From positions 1 through 64,000 of the forward strand of contig CAVTWJ010000014.1 of assembly GCA_963738405.1 (NCBI GenBank): a stretch of DNA of 64,000 nt. The letters run 5' to 3'. Shown in pieces: positions 33,171 to 62,890 of the stretch. This DNA comes from a candidate division FCPU426 bacterium. Its GTDB lineage: Bacteria > Oederibacteriota > Muellerivitia > Muellerivitales > Muellerivitaceae. Below the pieces are notes generated by a model that searched no databases, was not told where the DNA came from, and saw only the letters and a list, made by a program, of their open reading frames with translations. Made by a program: the position numbers and the translations under genes. Positions within the stretch are counted from its first letter, which is position 1, and each line of letters starts with the position of its first letter.

Positions 33171-34037
33171 TCAACGATACCCTGCTTTGCGGAACAAATT
33201 CAGCATTCGGTCCAAATCATCCAGTGAATAATATTCCAGCGTGACTGTTCCTTTTTGCTTGCCCTGGGTCTTGATCGTAACCTTCGTTCCCAGCCAATCC
33301 CTCAAACTTTCCTCCAGCTTGGCCACATTGGGATCTTTGACCTTGGACCCATGTTTCGAACGACGTCCAGGCCCTTTCTGGTTTTGGAGCCATTGCTCCA
33401 CCTCCCGCACAGAAGCCCCGTGATGGAGAATCTTGTCCGCCCATTTTTTTTGCTCCTGGGGGGTTGGAAGCCCGGCTAAAACCCGGGCATGGCCGGCCGT
33501 CAGCCTTCCGGATGCCAAAAGGGACTGCACTTCGGGAGCGAGCTTCAAAAGCCTCAGGGCGTTGGCCACAGTCGCCCGGTCCTTGCCGACCTTTTGAGCT
33601 ATTTGCTCTTGGGTCATTTGAAATTCTTCCTGAAGGCGGTGATACCCTTGGGATTCTTCAATGGGATTCAGGTCGGACCGTTGGAGATTCTCAATCAGGG
33701 CCAATTCCAAGGACTCGACGTCGCTGGCCACCACTTCGGTGACCGGCAGGGTCAAAAGTCCCAATTTTTGGGCCGCACGCCAGCGTCTTTCCCCCGCCAC
33801 GATTTCCCAGATTTCCCCTTTTTTGCGGACCACGATAGGCTGGAGAATCCCCTTTTCACGTACCGAATTGACCAGTTCCTGGAGTTCTTCCGGCCGGAAA
33901 ACCTTCCGGGGCTGGTTGGGATTGGGGCGGATTTTTGAAAGTGGAATCTGCTGCAATCCTCCCCGGCGTTCCTCGAAGGGCCTTTTGGGGATAAGGGCTT
34001 CCAAACCCTTTCCGAGCGCTTTCTTAGTCACGGGCAA
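33171..34037 (-). CDS. parB: Chromosome partitioning protein ParB/Spo0J
   Basis: KKALGKGLEALI, PNPNQPR, IVAGERRWRAA, ENLQRSDL, HTH. Confidence 0.97.
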   Translation of the reverse strand: MPVTKKALGKGLEALIPKRPFEERRGGLQQIPLSKIRPNPNQPRKVFRPEELQELVNSVREKGILQPIVVRKKGEIWEIVAGERRWRAAQKLGLLTLPVTEVVASDVESLELALIENLQRSDLNPIEESQGYHRLQEEFQMTQEQIAQKVGKDRATVANALRLLKLAPEVQSLLASGRLTAGHARVLAGLPTPQEQKKWADKILHHGASVREVEQWLQNQKGPGRRSKHGSKVKDPNVAKLEESLRDWLGTKVTIKTQGKQKGTVTLEYYSLDDLDRMLNLFRKAGYR

Positions 34038-34785
34038 CCACCTCCTTCGTGAGATTTAGGTAGGCTTGGGCTCCGCTGGAGCGGATGTCATAAAGAATAA
34101 TGGGTTTTCCAAAAGAGGGGGATTCGGAAAGCTGAACGTTTCGGGGAATGACTGTTTGATAAATCTTTTCCCCAAAAAATTTCTTCACTTCGTCGCCGAC
34201 CTGATTGGCGAGCCGGGTGCGGGCATCGTGCATGGTCAAGACCGCCCCCTCAATCACCAGATCCGGGTTAAGGCTTTCCCTTACCCTTTCAATGGTTTCC
34301 ATCAGCGAGCTCAAACCTTCAAGGGCGTAGTATTCGCTTTGAATGGGAATCAAGACCGACCGGGCGGCCGTGAGGGCGTTGAGCGTGAGGAACCCCAGGG
34401 AAGGGGGACAGTCGATCAGGATAAAATCAAACCCGTTTTCCACCGATTCCAGAGCTTTTTTGAGCCGTAATTCCCTTTCTTCCATGCCCACCAGTTCCAC
34501 TTCCGCGCCGGTCAAATGGCCGTTGGCGGGGACACAGAAAAGTTTTTGTAATTCGGTAGGCCGAATGGCCTGCAGGATGTCGGCCTCTCCCATGAGGACC
34601 TGGTAAATCGTGGGATCGCATTCGTTTTTATCTAGACCCACACCGCTCGTGGCGTTGCCCTGCGGGTCCAGATCCACCAGCAGGGTCTTTTTTTCGATGG
34701 CCGCCAGACAGGAGGCTAGGTTGACGGTGGTGGTGGTCTTGCCAACCCCGCCCTTTTGATTCGCGATACAGATAATCTTCGTCAT
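34024..34785 (-). CDS. parA: ParA/Soj ATPase
   Basis: NQKGGVGKTTT, DLDPQGNAT, IDCPPSLG, IPRNVQLSESPS. Confidence 0.97.
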   Translation of the reverse strand: MTKIICIANQKGGVGKTTTTVNLASCLAAIEKKTLLVDLDPQGNATSGVGLDKNECDPTIYQVLMGEADILQAIRPTELQKLFCVPANGHLTGAEVELVGMEERELRLKKALESVENGFDFILIDCPPSLGFLTLNALTAARSVLIPIQSEYYALEGLSSLMETIERVRESLNPDLVIEGAVLTMHDARTRLANQVGDEVKKFFGEKIYQTVIPRNVQLSESPSFGKPIILYDIRSSGAQAYLNLTKEVVARD

Positions 34786-57732: not shown

Positions 57733-57846
57733 GTGGGTCCTGGGTCGAATTGAAAGGGGGCATTTTAGCAGGTTAAGAAAAAACGCAAGCTGGCAAGTGG
57801 TTCGGGAAAGGTCCTAGAAAACGCTTTTATGACATGCGGAGGCTTT
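57716..57846. repeat. ~130-bp imperfect direct repeat, copy 1 (MFS promoter plus first codons)
   Basis: Shares ATTGAAAGGGGGCATTTTAGCAGGTT, AAAAAACGCAAGC, CAAGTGGTTC and TAGAAAACGCTTTTATGA with copy 2. Confidence 0.9.
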
Positions 57847-57920
57847 AATAACTTTAAAGAACGGCCTTTACGATTCCGCAAAGGATGCCCGGCAGACAAA
57901 ACAAAACCGGAATAATTGAA

Positions 57921-58130
57921 TTATCGATTCCAATCAGATGGATGAATATCGGCCTGACGAAGAATTTAACGGAGGAGGGAAATGCCAATGTCCCTTTGAT
58001 GGGGATTTGGAATGCGGAGTTTCAAAGTGCCTTTGACCATAAACATGTGTTTCCCGCCGCTATAGGGGCCTTCGAAACCTAGGAGGCCCAAACGGCGGAT
58101 CAAATCTCGCTGAGATACGGGTTTAAGCAT
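57921..58130 (-). pseudogene. hicA: HicA-family toxin with premature TAA
   Basis: Manual translation MLKPVSQRDLIRRLGLLGFEGPYSGGKHMFMVKGTLKLRIPNPHQRDIGISLLR*ILRQADIHPSDWNR*; stop at 57966-57968. Confidence 0.85.
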
Positions 58131-58368
58131 GTACCAAATTGGGTAATTTCAAGCGCTTCCCGTGAATCACCGGAAGGCGGTCCCCCTGATGCACCTTTAA
58201 CAAAACCCATTCCTCAAGCACTTCCTGGAGAACCTTTCGGCAGTTCTCAAGCCCTTTTTCGTTAGACCACACACCCTTAAACCCAGGAATTTCCCCGTAG
58301 TAGGTCTTGTCCTCGAGGATTTTGTATTTGGCCTGCCCCATCGCGGTATGAATGTATTCCATGAACAT
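58123..58368 (-). CDS. hicB: HicB-family antitoxin (short form)
   Basis: YYGEIPGFKGVWS..LENCRKVLQEVLEEW..LP; overlaps the hicA start. Confidence 0.88.
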   Translation of the reverse strand: MFMEYIHTAMGQAKYKILEDKTYYGEIPGFKGVWSNEKGLENCRKVLQEVLEEWVLLKVHQGDRLPVIHGKRLKLPNLVHA

Positions 58369-58433
58369 GTTCGCCCCCTTTACATTGGCAGTATATCAAA
58401 TCCATTTTTAAACAAAGGAATCAAACTTCAAAC

Positions 58434-58564
58434 AGGAATGGTTGGAACATGTTGATCCCGAAGTCGGATTGAAAGGGGGCATTTTAGCAGGTTGGGAAAA
58501 AACGCAAGCCGACAAGTGGTTCAGGGAGTGCTTTAGAAAACGCTTTTATGATGCCAGAGGCTTT
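58434..58564. repeat. ~130-bp imperfect direct repeat, copy 2
   Basis: Colinear with 57716-57846; minus strand encodes MFQPFL like the MFS start, then stops. Confidence 0.9.
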
Positions 58565-58680
58565 TAAAAACAATCTGAAACATCTATGTCGATTATCCAC
58601 TACAACTCCCCATCGAGGACAACCTGTGTAAATAAAGCGCAGACTGGATTTCCCTCGCGTCCCTGAAGCAGATGGACTTC

Positions 58681-59886
58681 TCAAGGGTTAATTAGCCTTT
58701 TGTAGTCGTCAGACGAATCAAAATCCTTGAATTGGGTATCCATCTTAATTTCTTGACGATATTTCGGATCAATATCGATTGTTTTTTGGACTTCCTCGAT
58801 CGCTTCTGTATGTTGGCCATTGGCCCAATAAGCCAATGCGAGGTTGTAATGTCCCATGGCATAATCCGGTTTTACTGCTATTGATTTTCCTAGTGTTTGA
58901 ATAGCCTCGTCGTATTTTTTCAACCGAAAGAAGGCATAACCCATCAATTCATAAGCCCTACAATTATTCGCATCCACATCAATGGCCTTTTGATATTCTG
59001 AAATTGCCTTCCCGAATTGTTTCTTTTTAGCTAATTTCTCCCCCGCGAAAAGGGGATTCTCCTTACCCGCTGTGAGTGTCTCATTCAACACTTGTATGCA
59101 AATCCAACCTGACGCGCTGCCCGAGGGGTAAACCATTTTTGCGGTTTTCTTGTCGTCTCCGGCTTGGTTTGTACAAGTGACATAAACCAAGCGACCCCCA
59201 TGAATAACCTTGGTCTCACAATTCGAAGTATCCATTTGATCGTTAGCAAAATCTTCACCCATAGCCAATTGCGCTTCATATTCCGCACTATCTCGGTAAG
59301 GTTGATGACCCCCGCCCATTGGAAACTCGGAATCAAAAGTAATATCATCGACCTTTAATGAGCCATCTTCCTCGTCAAGGGTGATAAAACCATAAAAAAT
59401 CCGGGCGCTAGCACCTGTCGTTTCGGGTGGGGTGCCGCCAAGGAACAACCCTTTGTTCATTGGTTCCTCACCAACAAGAACACTTATCTCAAAAAACACC
59501 CGTTTTCGATTTGGAACTTCATTTGAATCGCCGGTATTATTCGCGGAATAAAGTTGAAGAAGTTTAAAATCCCCTTCATTGCCGAATGACTCAAGGTATT
59601 TCTCTGGTGTAATTTTGGACAAGTAACTCTTCGAAAGATAAGTTACGCTTTTATCTAAATTACCGCTGCCTTCCCCAATCGTACCCATGTTGGTAAACAT
59701 ATTCGAGGTACAGATAAGATCCATGAATTCTTTTGCCATTTTCGTTTCCGGGTTTTGTTCCTCATCCAAGAGGGGAAATGATTCAGTTTGTTTTGCTTCG
59801 AGTAGATGGCTTCTTTTCGCCAAACAAAAACTCGGGCTCAAACAAAAGCCGACAACGCAAATAATCCATAACCAGGATAATTTCAA
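58681..59886 (-). CDS. Exported protein with C-terminal TPR repeats (AT-rich)
   Basis: Signal peptide; KAISEYQKAIDVD, EAIQTLGKSIAVKP, EAIEEVQKTIDIDP. Confidence 0.82.
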   Translation of the reverse strand: MKLSWLWIICVVGFCLSPSFCLAKRSHLLEAKQTESFPLLDEEQNPETKMAKEFMDLICTSNMFTNMGTIGEGSGNLDKSVTYLSKSYLSKITPEKYLESFGNEGDFKLLQLYSANNTGDSNEVPNRKRVFFEISVLVGEEPMNKGLFLGGTPPETTGASARIFYGFITLDEEDGSLKVDDITFDSEFPMGGGHQPYRDSAEYEAQLAMGEDFANDQMDTSNCETKVIHGGRLVYVTCTNQAGDDKKTAKMVYPSGSASGWICIQVLNETLTAGKENPLFAGEKLAKKKQFGKAISEYQKAIDVDANNCRAYELMGYAFFRLKKYDEAIQTLGKSIAVKPDYAMGHYNLALAYWANGQHTEAIEEVQKTIDIDPKYRQEIKMDTQFKDFDSSDDYKRLINP

Positions 59887-60063
59887 TTGATCCCTCGATT
59901 TCTCAAAACAGAATTCAAAATATTATTAAGTTTTTCGTTTCAAATTCCCCCATTGGAAGATAGAGCTTTTCTGACAATTTTTTCTGCCCACGTCGGGTCC
60001 CCGTCGAGAACAAAGCTTTATCCCCAATCTCGAAACCATTATCGCACCCGGCAATTGATGCCA

Positions 60064-61668
60064 TCAGGCCTCTTCCACAAAATATTCCTCAGGTTCGTTT
60101 CCATCCCAAACCCAATCCACCAACTTCTCCATTTCATCTACCCACATCTCATTCGCGATGGCCACATTGACCACCCGCTCAACGATCTTTTGGGTTTCTT
60201 CAAGGTCTTTGGAGAGCTTATCGAGGCGTTTCAACGGAATAGCTTGCCATTCCGTAAACCGATAGCCCCCGTTATCCGTCCTTCCCTCATGGCAGTTACG
60301 AATGCTTTCAATGATCGCGATTCTGGTGTCTTTATTCAGCAGTTTAAATGCCGGATATACTTCTTTCGCCAATACGGGATCCAATTCCAACTTGATCGCC
60401 TTTTCGGCCACGGTCCCCTTCGGATCAAGCCCTAAAAGCCTTTCCAAAGCCCAGTAACCTTCAATCCAGGTACTGCATTTGGTTAGCCGATCAAGTTCGT
60501 TGAGAACCTTTATGGCTTCCCAAACATCGATGGTGGGGAAAACTGCGGCTGCTATCGTCGGCCGACCCAGTCGTTTGGCCGCTTCAAGTACGAGCGGGTC
60601 GTCAAACACCTCGTAATCATGGGCAGGATCGGCCTCCTTTTCCTCCTCTGAGAGGGTTCGAACCAGGATCTCCCTTTCGTAACTAGTTGCCTGCATGGAA
60701 AGGACCTTCCGCTGAAGTTCTTCAGGGGTAAAGTCCTTGTAGGGAGTGTAGGGATTTACGCTGACACGCGAGGTGTCGATTCTTATGTGTTTAACTTGGT
60801 CATATTTCTTTATTCCAGGAACAAACCCCTTCGGGGCTTTACCCTTGGGTTCCTTGACTGTTTCGTAATCCTCCAGCCGATTCCCCTCCTTGACCCATTT
60901 GACCAACCCTTTGGCCTGGGCTTCGGTCATTTGCACCTTCCGGGCTAGGCTCAACGCCCTGGCGATGAGGTCCCGGTCTTCCGGGGAGGTTTTGGAGACC
61001 CCGTCCAGCCCCAGCATGGCGTAGGCGACTTTCTCTGGAAAATCCCACAAATTCGCATCTGTTATGCCTGGTTCATAAGGTGTTTCGTTTCTAAGGGTTT
61101 TTGGGGCATTCACGGGAACCCCATAAATGGCCTCTTTGGCCTTGTCATTCAAGAAATCCATCAGCCTTAGTATTCGGCTAACGGTTGTCTGGTCTATTCC
61201 TAGTTGGGCCGCTATCTTCTCCTGGCTAACGCCCGGTTGGAACCGTTGGATGTCCTCTATGCCTTGGTACCGGTCCAGCCAATGAGGGTTCTCTTCCTCG
61301 TTATCCATGAATGCTTCCAAAAGAATCTGGGCTGGCGTGAGGTCGTAATCCAGGGCATCCAGGGTCGCCCAACCGAGCCGCTGGGCCGCCTCAAGCCTTA
61401 AATGGCCGCCTACGACCCCATGCTCATAGGGGCAGACACCCCCTAGGTCTTTGGCGATCTCAGCCTTTTCGGCCTCGGAAAGGGTCCAGGTCTTGATGGG
61501 CGTTTTTTGGCCAATTGACCGCATGGAATTCATCTTGGCCTCGACAGCGCCGGGCTTTTTGAACTTGCGGGGGTTCTTGGGGTTGGGCCAGAGTTTCCCG
61601 ATGGGGATTCTCATGAACCGGGGGGTGGGACGGTTCTCAGATGGATTGGCAGACGTTTCAACGGACAT
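60064..61668 (-). CDS. Protein composed of two tandem ParB-like modules
   Basis: Half 1: PNPKNPR..VGGHLRLEAAQRLG..HTH SQEKIAAQLGIDQTTVSRIL. Half 2 is colinear but degenerate. SD GGAGG precedes ATG 61668. Confidence 0.85.
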   Translation of the reverse strand: MSVETSANPSENRPTPRFMRIPIGKLWPNPKNPRKFKKPGAVEAKMNSMRSIGQKTPIKTWTLSEAEKAEIAKDLGGVCPYEHGVVGGHLRLEAAQRLGWATLDALDYDLTPAQILLEAFMDNEEENPHWLDRYQGIEDIQRFQPGVSQEKIAAQLGIDQTTVSRILRLMDFLNDKAKEAIYGVPVNAPKTLRNETPYEPGITDANLWDFPEKVAYAMLGLDGVSKTSPEDRDLIARALSLARKVQMTEAQAKGLVKWVKEGNRLEDYETVKEPKGKAPKGFVPGIKKYDQVKHIRIDTSRVSVNPYTPYKDFTPEELQRKVLSMQATSYEREILVRTLSEEEKEADPAHDYEVFDDPLVLEAAKRLGRPTIAAAVFPTIDVWEAIKVLNELDRLTKCSTWIEGYWALERLLGLDPKGTVAEKAIKLELDPVLAKEVYPAFKLLNKDTRIAIIESIRNCHEGRTDNGGYRFTEWQAIPLKRLDKLSKDLEETQKIVERVVNVAIANEMWVDEMEKLVDWVWDGNEPEEYFVEEA

Positions 61669-61798
61669 GAGGACACCTCCCAAATGAATTGAATGCTCCC
61701 CTTGTTTTGGGAATCGTAATTTTAGTTTTTATTCATTTCAAGAAAAAAGCGGGAGGTAGATCAGTTTCACAAGGACAGAAAAGCAACAGTTTTTTCGA

Positions 61799-62092
61799 TT
61801 AGGCGGGTTTGGCCAAGATAGGCTTCTTCTTGTGATGAATTTTCTGAGCTTGGGACAAATCATAATTCTTTTGGAGATTCAGCCACAGATCGGGAGTTGT
61901 TCCCAAAACATCCGCTAAGGAAAGGGCGGCTTCGGGGGTAACCCCCCTTCTCCCGTGGATAATTTCGTTCACCTTGGCATGTGACCACCCCAGGTGCAGA
62001 GCGAAAGCGTTTTGGGAAACGCCCATAGGTTTCAGGAAATCTTCGCTCAAAATTTCACCAGGATGGGTTGGGAGCTTCGATTTCGTTAACAT
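61799..62092 (-). CDS. higA: HigA-family antitoxin
   Basis: HPGEILSEDFLKPMG..VNEIIHGRRGVTPEAA..WLNLQKNYDL. Confidence 0.92.
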   Translation of the reverse strand: MLTKSKLPTHPGEILSEDFLKPMGVSQNAFALHLGWSHAKVNEIIHGRRGVTPEAALSLADVLGTTPDLWLNLQKNYDLSQAQKIHHKKKPILAKPA

Positions 62093-62133
62093 TTCGTTTT
62101 TCTCCAATAGAGAGACACTGCTTTCATTCCATT

Positions 62134-62565
62134 TCAAAGCCCTAACTTTTTAAGAAGCTGGGCCGTCGTGTACCATTCGACACCGGTTCCTTCAAAATCG
62201 CCGTCGTTGGACCATAGGGGTATTTCCAATTCTAAAGCCAAGGCCAATAAATCCACATCGTCGGGGTCTCTTTTTCCAATTTTCCGCCGGGCAATTGCCA
62301 ACGAACCCTGATATTCCCTTAAGTTAAATTCCCGGACAGCCAAAAGTTGAAACTGGCTTTCCAAAAGTTCCACGGCCATTTCATATTTCTCGGCCATGAC
62401 CGGAAGGTATTCCCGTACTTCTTTGATGTTTAAGGATGTTGAAACGACTTCGAGGGAGGATTGTTTAAAGACTTTAAGAGCGGCACGGCCTACGACAGCG
62501 GACAGAAGGACGTTAGCGTCCGCCGCGATTCGACCGGCGGCCTTTTCTCCATTTTTCAAAATCAT
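62134..62565 (-). CDS. PIN-domain (VapC-like) toxin
   Basis: DANVLLSA, E, RDPDD, LWSNDGDF acidic set; start uncertain. Confidence 0.88.
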   Translation of the reverse strand: MILKNGEKAAGRIAADANVLLSAVVGRAALKVFKQSSLEVVSTSLNIKEVREYLPVMAEKYEMAVELLESQFQLLAVREFNLREYQGSLAIARRKIGKRDPDDVDLLALALELEIPLWSNDGDFEGTGVEWYTTAQLLKKLGL

Positions 62566-62791
62566 TGATAACCGTCCGCTCGCTGACGCCTGATTTTTTT
62601 AAGTGGCTCGATATAGCCAAGCCCAGGTTGGTTAAAAGTTCCTTACGCAATTCCAAGGGAAGTTCCTGGGATTTGGACATTGGAACCAATAGGCTGGCAA
62701 CCTTGCCGTGCTTAGTAACAAACACAAGATCATTTCCGCTCAAATATTCCGGAGCATTATCCCTAAATTCTCTAACTCCCGCGACTCGCAT
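62513..62791 (-). CDS. Phd/YefM-like antitoxin
   Basis: GVREFRDN..YL..VFVTKHGKVASLLVP; overlaps the PIN gene. Confidence 0.82.
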   Translation of the reverse strand: MRVAGVREFRDNAPEYLSGNDLVFVTKHGKVASLLVPMSKSQELPLELRKELLTNLGLAISSHLKKSGVSERTVINDFEKWRKGRRSNRGGR

Positions 62792-62833
62792 GACTACTCC
62801 TATTCAAACAACTTTGCTTTTTCTTCTCTCTTA

Positions 62834-62877
62834 AATATCCAACCTTCTTCAAATTATGTCAATAGTTGTGTACACAA
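62834..62877 (-). promoter_or_regulatory. TA promoter and palindromic operator
   Basis: Minus-strand TTGACA (62857-62862) next to the perfect palindrome TTGTGTACACAA (62866-62877); TGTACA core as in Phd/YefM operators. Confidence 0.65.
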
Positions 62878-62890
62878 TAATTTAACTGCT

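Follow-up and report, generated by a model that had tools for sequence, protein, structure and literature searches.

A tandem ParB-module gene with a conserved, acidic pseudo-ParB half in one uncultured bacterial family

Organization of the locus

The window is a 64,000-nucleotide stretch of contig CAVTWJ010000014.1 from a candidate division FCPU426 bacterium (GenBank assembly GCA_963738405.1). Near its end lies a gene for a protein, P0001, composed of two ParB-type modules, A and B. Its ATG start codon is at 61668 and is preceded by a ribosome-binding site, GGAGG, at 61676-61680. The gene lies in a variable slot, and the features of the locus are listed below.

57733..62890, no strand: variable slot of ~5.2 kb between an MFS gene and rimI, occupied by the tandem gene, toxin-antitoxin genes of the HicB-like, HigA-like, and PIN kinds, and a TPR gene (open reading frames, Pfam, cross-genome comparison)
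60064..61668, minus strand: tandem ParB-module gene P0001, 534 amino acids (open reading frame, translation, self-alignment, ribosome-binding site)
60862..61620, minus strand: module A, residues 17-269, with ParB N-domain, HTH, and helical DNA-binding domain, without the canonical C-terminal dimerization domain (Pfam, model, structure matches)
61396..61410, minus strand: GGHLR, the Box II sequence in module A (residues 87-91), whose G and R are the same in all 103 A modules
61162..61227, minus strand: HTH of module A, residues 148-169 (Pfam), whose recognition helix co-varies with the self-palindrome family-wide
61108..61128, no strand: gene-specific 9-3-9 palindrome at the fixed coding position of the family, a predicted self-loading site, with 7 of 9 pairs and both departures transitions
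60796..60861, minus strand: flexible linker, residues 270-291, 22 residues (low pLDDT; centre covered by a contig of run X1)
60067..60795, minus strand: module B, residues 292-534, an acidic (net charge -15) pseudo-ParB in a clade of its own and under purifying selection (residue counts, tree, pN/pS, structure matches)
61713..61741, minus strand: upstream match to a sigma70-like promoter, agreeing at 9 of 12 consensus bases
33171..34785, minus strand: canonical chromosomal parA-parB pair, ~25-27 kb from the tandem gene, given as context outside the system

Two sigma70-like matches were found against 1.3 expected, which is not above chance.

The content of the slot differs between genomes. It holds 0.9 kb of other genes in G003 and different genes again in G004 and G021, and its flanks lie on different contigs in G001 and G002. 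On the two sides of the tandem gene in the window lie HigA-like, PIN plus putative antitoxin, and HicB-like genes (61799-62791 and 58123-58368). As the original prediction had stated, no parA is found among the open reading frames next to P0001, and the canonical pair is distant. Accessory genes of various kinds surround the 113 family loci, and the 40 most recurrent neighbor clusters listed for these loci include no parA, integrase, or constant partner. The TPR gene downstream (58681-59886) has a 76% DNA match in G008 (L103:1302-2542), and there too it lies behind a family gene, which suggests that the family carries cargo genes along. Four tandems sit behind hisS. One of these, in G044, is split within module A by an opposite-strand transposase-like gene of an insertion sequence (L152:3649-6672).

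A mobile-element carrier and a defense system were considered and rejected. Relatives were absent from viral contigs, 72,556 plasmids, and 50,697 phages (tblastn of P0001 for plasmids and phages), and P0001 has no PADLOC match.

Two ParB-type modules in one chain

Residues 17-268 and 293-529 of P0001 align end to end with 27% identity over 258 columns (E = 9e-17). The true half scores 64.3 bits, against 24.3 bits for the highest-scoring of 500 shuffled halves. The seven motif pairs from which the repeat was originally proposed are all present. Family profiles of the two halves match each other over 242 columns (probability 100, E = 3.5e-43). Pfam ParB_N (PF02195) matches two stretches of P0001 (26.5 bits against a cut-off of 26.3), and HTH_ParB matches half 1 only.

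In the AlphaFold model of P0001 (54-row alignment, mean pLDDT 87.4, pTM 0.58), both halves fit the N- and DNA-binding domains of solved ParB, Noc, and KorB structures. The prediction that half 2 adopts a ParB fold is borne out in this model. Half 2 matches 7bnr over model residues 293-521 (Z 12.9), its N-domain matches PadC (6ryk; Z 11.9, rmsd 2.2), and it matches the Spo0J DNA-binding domain (4umk; Z 9.0, rmsd 3.2). The N-terminus and residues 273-285 of the linker are disordered. According to the model, each module corresponds to a ParB protein minus its C-terminal dimerization domain. Structural matches of module A end near residue 218 of Spo0J and residue 225 of Noc, short of the C-domain, and module B comes straight after A. 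No ParB C-domain family is among the Pfam matches of P0001, and the canonical C-domain profile has no match among the tails of the family.

A 180-base contig from the separate run X1, at least 99% identical, crosses the linker centre unbroken. This gives weak support to the junction not being an assembly chimera, and run X1 may stem from the same campaign. Two DNA runs from one study cover only short pieces of the gene.

Module A and its family

Residue positions were mapped onto Caulobacter crescentus ParB, in which the substitutions R60A, S74A, G79S, R103A, R104A, N136A, and R139A leave CTP binding weak or absent, according to the available text of PMC8367383. Half 1 had been described as intact-looking, and this is correct for the equivalents of R60 (R34), S74 (S48), G79 (G53), G101 (G88), R104 (R91), and N136 (N123). 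At the positions of E102, R103, and R139, however, it has H, L, and E, so it is only partly canonical. Because these three equivalents are missing, module A of P0001 may bind or hydrolyze CTP poorly. The equivalents of G101, R104, and N136, in Boxes II and III, are invariant in 103 of 103 A modules.

The genome of the window (G000) encodes 11 orphan A-module genes in addition to the canonical parB, and 2 of the 11 are tandems. The original prediction was silent on these paralogues. Approximately 100 loci were taken from search matches and include most, though not all, non-canonical matches. After one canonical ParB was dropped, and with near-copies kept, 94 A modules were counted in the fetched loci. 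Their tails vary: 62 have a membrane segment called by hydropathy, 20 have none, 9 have a B module, and 3 have nearly no tail. One class of outer domain on the membrane tails folds like DotI/IcmL/VirB8 (pLDDT 94.5, Z 16.2, rmsd 2.5). A second class has weak PDZ matches (best E = 0.06). In the ESM Atlas, scores for the outer domain are all under 0.9. The A family is orphan and lineage-restricted, confined to one uncultured bacterial family.

Module B is altered but conserved

Module B has lost the residues for nucleotide and DNA binding. The Box I arginine (R60) and the Box II arginine (R104) are each kept in 0 of 19 B modules, and the Box III asparagine (N136) is kept in 2, that of P0001 not being one of them. 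G79 is present in 12 of the 19, and 13 have an arginine where alpha3 ends. All 19 have a net charge between -8 and -25. The mean charge of the recognition helix is -0.47 in B and +1.58 in A (15 B and 100 A modules). Some A modules are acidic as well, down to -17, and the acidity of B does not establish DNA mimicry on its own.

Half 2 had been called degenerate. The description holds for the phosphate-binding arginines and the asparagine, but the half is not eroding and is the better-conserved of the two across homologues. Among the 12 B genes with DNA, pN is lower than pS in 66 of 66 pairs, and dN/dS ranges from 0.16 to 0.43 across the 15 least saturated B pairs. Module B is under purifying selection. 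In the ESM Atlas, B has only generic ParB_N clusters, and a first search of the genome contigs with the B half alone gave no match.

Origin and distribution of module B

In a quick IQ-TREE analysis, all 15 B modules from the first set group together as a single clade (SH-aLRT 99). The 15 tandem heads, placed on a 103-row FastTree tree of A modules, fall into five clades. Their distribution needs 9 label changes, and strong branches force 6 of these. The head of P0001 shares 54-56% identity with the single-module proteins P0005-P0007 and 27% with its own B. That B is 61-64% identical to the B modules of L170 and P0003, whose heads belong to other clades, and B is only 22-29% identical to the heads of the five clades. 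Two open reading frames, L106 and L162, encode B without a head. These may be remnants, because one has an A-module trace upstream (E = 4e-4); the other has no clear ribosome-binding site. Several copies of a ~21-base repeat lie upstream of the B-only frame in G014 (L106:4654-4740).

The single B clade, found behind heads of five clades or alone, identifies the tandem as a shuffled fusion rather than a decaying duplication. By the same tree pattern and the contrast between head and B identities, B had a single origin in an A-type ancestor and was then recombined behind various heads.

At a threshold of at least 260 bits, 9 of 31 family genomes contain B, at 12 places in all. It is absent from the 68 genomes of 22 other families of the phylum, and three of those have only weaker A-type matches. 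G004, which is 99% complete and has many A genes, has no B match at this threshold. B is dispensable, and the gene is accessory and patchy. Among the best 150 matches in 1.84 billion representatives, the strong B matches are tandems, B-only sequences, or fragments, with a maximum of 581 amino acids.

A gene-specific palindrome after the HTH

Most A genes of the family carry a 9-3-9 palindrome within their own coding sequence, a feature that the original prediction had also left unmentioned. It starts at a fixed codon after the HTH, and at least 7 of 9 bases pair there in 49 of 94 A genes. A more permissive search for the best palindrome anywhere in the loop finds at least 7 of 9 pairs in 88 of 94. 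As background, 0.67% of all in-frame positions reach at least 7 of 9, and 0 of 12 B genes score 7. The sequence of the palindrome varies from gene to gene. All nine tandem genes with DNA have at least 7 of 9 pairs: six have 9, one has 8, and two have 7, the gene of the window being among the last. The genome contains no further copy of its palindrome within 2 mismatches.

The recognition helix of ParB reads a palindrome through two DNA-binding domains in two-fold symmetry (available text of PMC7383237). In the family, 199 windows of eight residues were compared with half-site identity, with overall identity controlled and pairs that are not independent. The six of the 199 windows that follow half-site identity most closely are all located on the recognition helix. 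None of 184 off-helix windows reaches the helix value, though one nearly equals it (0.242 versus 0.243). This co-variation could partly reflect co-transfer by recombination, because the helix and the palindrome are ~20 codons apart.

An RNA hairpin was considered as another reading of the palindrome, and both mismatches of the window's site would pair as G-U in RNA. Across 83 distinct family sites, however, G:T is not enriched (8 G:T versus 14 A:C), and the lack of a G:T excess favors a double-stranded site. Because the tandem genes keep symmetric sites, binding by two chains as A:A is favored over a single-chain pseudo-dimer clamp.

In two loci of G000, L006 (C16:47162 and 47204) and L008 (C23:147907 and 147949), the palindrome occurs twice, 42 bases apart, in a duplicated loop. 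Palindromes of the family type also occur outside recognized family genes in G000, at C20:50523 and 50607, C2:22561, and C2:198141, and are possibly relics or target sites.

A tentative mechanism and its alternatives

The preferred reading, which is tentative, is that module A is a ParB-type head that loads as an A:A clamp at its self-palindrome and that B is a pseudo-ParB brake that caps ParB-type heads. Module A would bind a nucleoside triphosphate, with CTP the likeliest because S48 and G53 of the C-motif are kept, judging by the biochemistry of ParB, KorB, and Noc (PMC8367383 and PMC8494293, in the text available). By ParB biochemistry, two A chains would then engage the symmetric palindrome inside their own gene. 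The clamp would close and spread, probably silencing a nearby promoter ~600 bases away. B would touch A-type heads through its conserved N-domain surface, or present an acidic, DNA-like surface to the HTH, and would thereby limit loading or spreading of its own head or of the heads of paralogues. Since the slot of B is occupied in most paralogues by a membrane tail whose outer domain is VirB8/DotI-like or PDZ-like, the A-B protein would regulate, in soluble form, a family tethered to the membrane. That tandem genes have symmetric sites speaks for two A heads in the DNA-bound unit, with B left outside the N-gate, and the open form of the ligand-free model points weakly the same way. A brake is preferred because it fits the acidity of B, its indifference to the clade of the head, and the B-only frames. 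Against this reading, the window's own palindrome is imperfect, B is dispensable, and the B-only frames may be remnants.

The main rival, close behind, is doubtful but a serious candidate. It holds that B is a nucleotide-independent dimerization hinge: B:B contacts would replace the missing C-domain and close the ring, so that the two A heads would make up a sliding clamp that is soluble and sits on their own gene. The matches of module A end before the C-domain and the tails of the family lack a canonical one, B is C-terminal in every fusion seen, tandem genes have symmetric sites of which 6 of 9 are perfect, and the independence of B from the head clade fits as well. Against a hinge, B-only frames would be useless if expressed, and a two-domain module of 245 residues with a whole HTH domain is oversized for the task. 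A hinge of this kind would also turn a strongly acidic wall toward the DNA lumen, unlike the C-domains of ParB proteins.

A wider form of the brake reading is rather unlikely as a whole. It describes a self-addressing, recombining ParB system in which the loop codons hold the gene's own loading site, the HTH co-evolves with it, and the C-terminal cargoes swap. Most cargoes would be VirB8/DotI-like envelope anchors that pin the gene's DNA. B would be the first pseudo-ParB, a nucleotide-blind DNA mimic that is dominant-negative in cis and in trans over paralogues.

The original prediction proposed a covalent, asymmetric pseudo-dimer clamp. In such a model, one chain would form an A:B clamp with one CTP, one active HTH, and an opposite alpha3 lent by B, possibly through the conserved R394. 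In ParB, each CTP is placed between a subunit and its partner's helix alpha3 (available text of PMC8367383). B retains the fold and frequently G79 and the alpha3-end arginine, the 22-residue linker is flexible, and the window's own site is asymmetric, all of which speak for such a clamp. It is nevertheless unlikely. The perfect and mutually different palindromes in 6 of 9 tandem genes imply selection on both half-sites, and symmetric, gene-specific sites call for two identical HTHs. In addition, B is a separate clade, distant from its heads, that stands behind at least five unrelated head clades and also occurs headless. The ligand-free, single-chain model lies nearer to open, unswapped conformers (rmsd 6.7 to 7nfu and 6.8 to 6t1f) than to CTP-closed ones (15.3 to 6sdk and 14.4 to 7bm8), which, at a pTM of 0.58, is weak evidence against the intramolecular N-gate closure that had been envisaged. 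A two-chain complex prediction of half 1 with half 2, each with its own alignment, scored 0.25 against a mark of 0.32 and counts neither for nor against binding. The enzyme/pseudo-enzyme switch that was proposed alongside the clamp is plausible.

Less likely still is a role for B in sensing or binding a new ligand, such as a metal, a metabolite, or a host protein, with B as one more cargo shown on DNA by the A clamp. B has its own set of conserved residues (R301, R320, D347, H350, D351, F355, D381, T400, S455, C459, and F471), and other family members hold varied cargoes in the same slot. However, several of these residues belong to a motif also seen in some A modules, C459 and the loop after it are missing in several B modules, and no neighboring gene hints at a ligand.

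That B is a decaying, functionless relic of duplication would suit an accessory, patchy gene found with B in 9 of 31 genomes and one tandem split by an insertion sequence, but it is very improbable and largely refuted by the selection test, as well as by full-length open frames at 39-64% identity to the window's B, the loss of identical residues in all copies, and the repeated re-fusion of B.

Relation to known ParB-type proteins

Chromosomal ParB/Spo0J and Noc (1vz0, 6sdk, 7bm8, 7nfu, 7ng0) give the best profile and fold matches to P0001. Their N-domain, HTH, and helical domain are found in both halves, and the S/G of the C-motif, the Box I arginine, GxxR of Box II, and the Box III asparagine are shared with half 1. 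P0001 differs from canonical ParB in having no ParA-binding N-terminus, no C-terminal dimerization domain, and no parA. The motif for ParA binding, given as (L/F/I)G(K/R)G(L/F/I) in the available text of PMC12704722, is absent from the N-terminus of P0001 and present in the canonical ParB of the window. The missing ParA-binding N-terminus, the missing parA, and the accessory slot support the non-partition role that had been proposed. P0001 also falls below the NCBIfam cut-offs (41 versus 58 bits; 30.5 versus 315 bits for TIGR04285, Noc). Noc has an N-terminal amphipathic membrane helix, whereas the N-terminus of P0001 is disordered in the model. Unlike ParB and Noc, P0001 has two modules per chain and many swappable paralogues, and in place of parS or NBS the family has a 9-3-9 gene-specific palindrome in its own gene.

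KorB of RK2, VirB of Shigella, BisD, and HerB are orphan or repurposed ParB-type regulators, according to the text available of PMC12704722 and PMC13370423. They are ParB-fold clamps outside partition, and P0001 has fold matches to 8qa8/8qa9 and 3vwb. They are single-module homodimers on plasmids or integrative and conjugative elements, whereas P0001 has two modules and no plasmid match. In the sources available, the locking partners of KorB are unrelated small proteins; in P0001, the candidate partner is a fused pseudo-ParB. KorB and VirB bind a palindromic operator and spread to regulate promoters. The P0001 family has an intragenic palindrome, its putative site, that co-varies with the recognition helix. 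PadC of Myxococcus is ParB-like and without noticeable CTPase activity (available text of PMC8367383). PadC binds CTP and recruits ParA, whereas B lacks the CTP-binding arginines and asparagine and the family has no link to parA. B, unlike PadC, has retained a domain of the HTH type and is joined to an intact module ahead of it. By analogy, P0001 would work like an orphan ParB-type clamp such as KorB, VirB, Noc, or HerB, but it is not a canonical ParB, Noc, or PadC.

The architecture had been put forward as unrecognized, and the literature searched, with subscription papers outside it, describes no tandem or pseudo-ParB. The main text of a survey of ~80,000 ParB homologues (PMC12704722) does not mention tandem, two-ParB, or transmembrane forms, and neither does the supplementary text available, although its large datasets may list such proteins. 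A heterodimer is not mentioned in the available text of PMC8357417 or PMC8494293. P0001 is a real, selected protein of the ParB kind that was apparently undescribed before.

ParB clamps are understood as homodimers with two nucleotide sites, each built between identical subunits. B is a natural, selected module that keeps the fold and has lost predicted nucleotide and DNA binding, and it is thus a ready-made probe of these clamps. Two questions that it could address are whether a single active subunit can close a clamp and whether pseudo-enzymes regulate ParB switches. The reach is limited to an accessory gene in one uncultured bacterial family. Within it, dozens of natural HTH-palindrome pairs are available for the study of DNA specificity beyond the ParB/Noc pair.

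Other sequences related to the family

Six long open reading frames of G000 match the HTH-plus-helical half only, without a ParB N-domain (C4:46837, C14:238829, C5:689, C9:24934, C14:125323, and C12:78085). A repeat of ~55-75 bases is found in frame both within linkers of family genes and in genes unrelated to them, with 12 matches on 8 contigs, and resembles a coding-sequence repeat element. Its sites in G000 are C23:10159-10233, C6:9267-9464, C22:43319 and 50898, C9:26163 and 179412, C3:24113, C20:116442, C16:46990, and C12:79907. A sister clade of B is represented by L095:3615-5315, L128:4486-6180, and L154:7285-9276, as well as by P0016 and P0019. Its members are composed of an N-terminal membrane segment, an acidic module in which GxxR and the asparagine are kept and the HTH is altered, and a conserved unknown C-domain.
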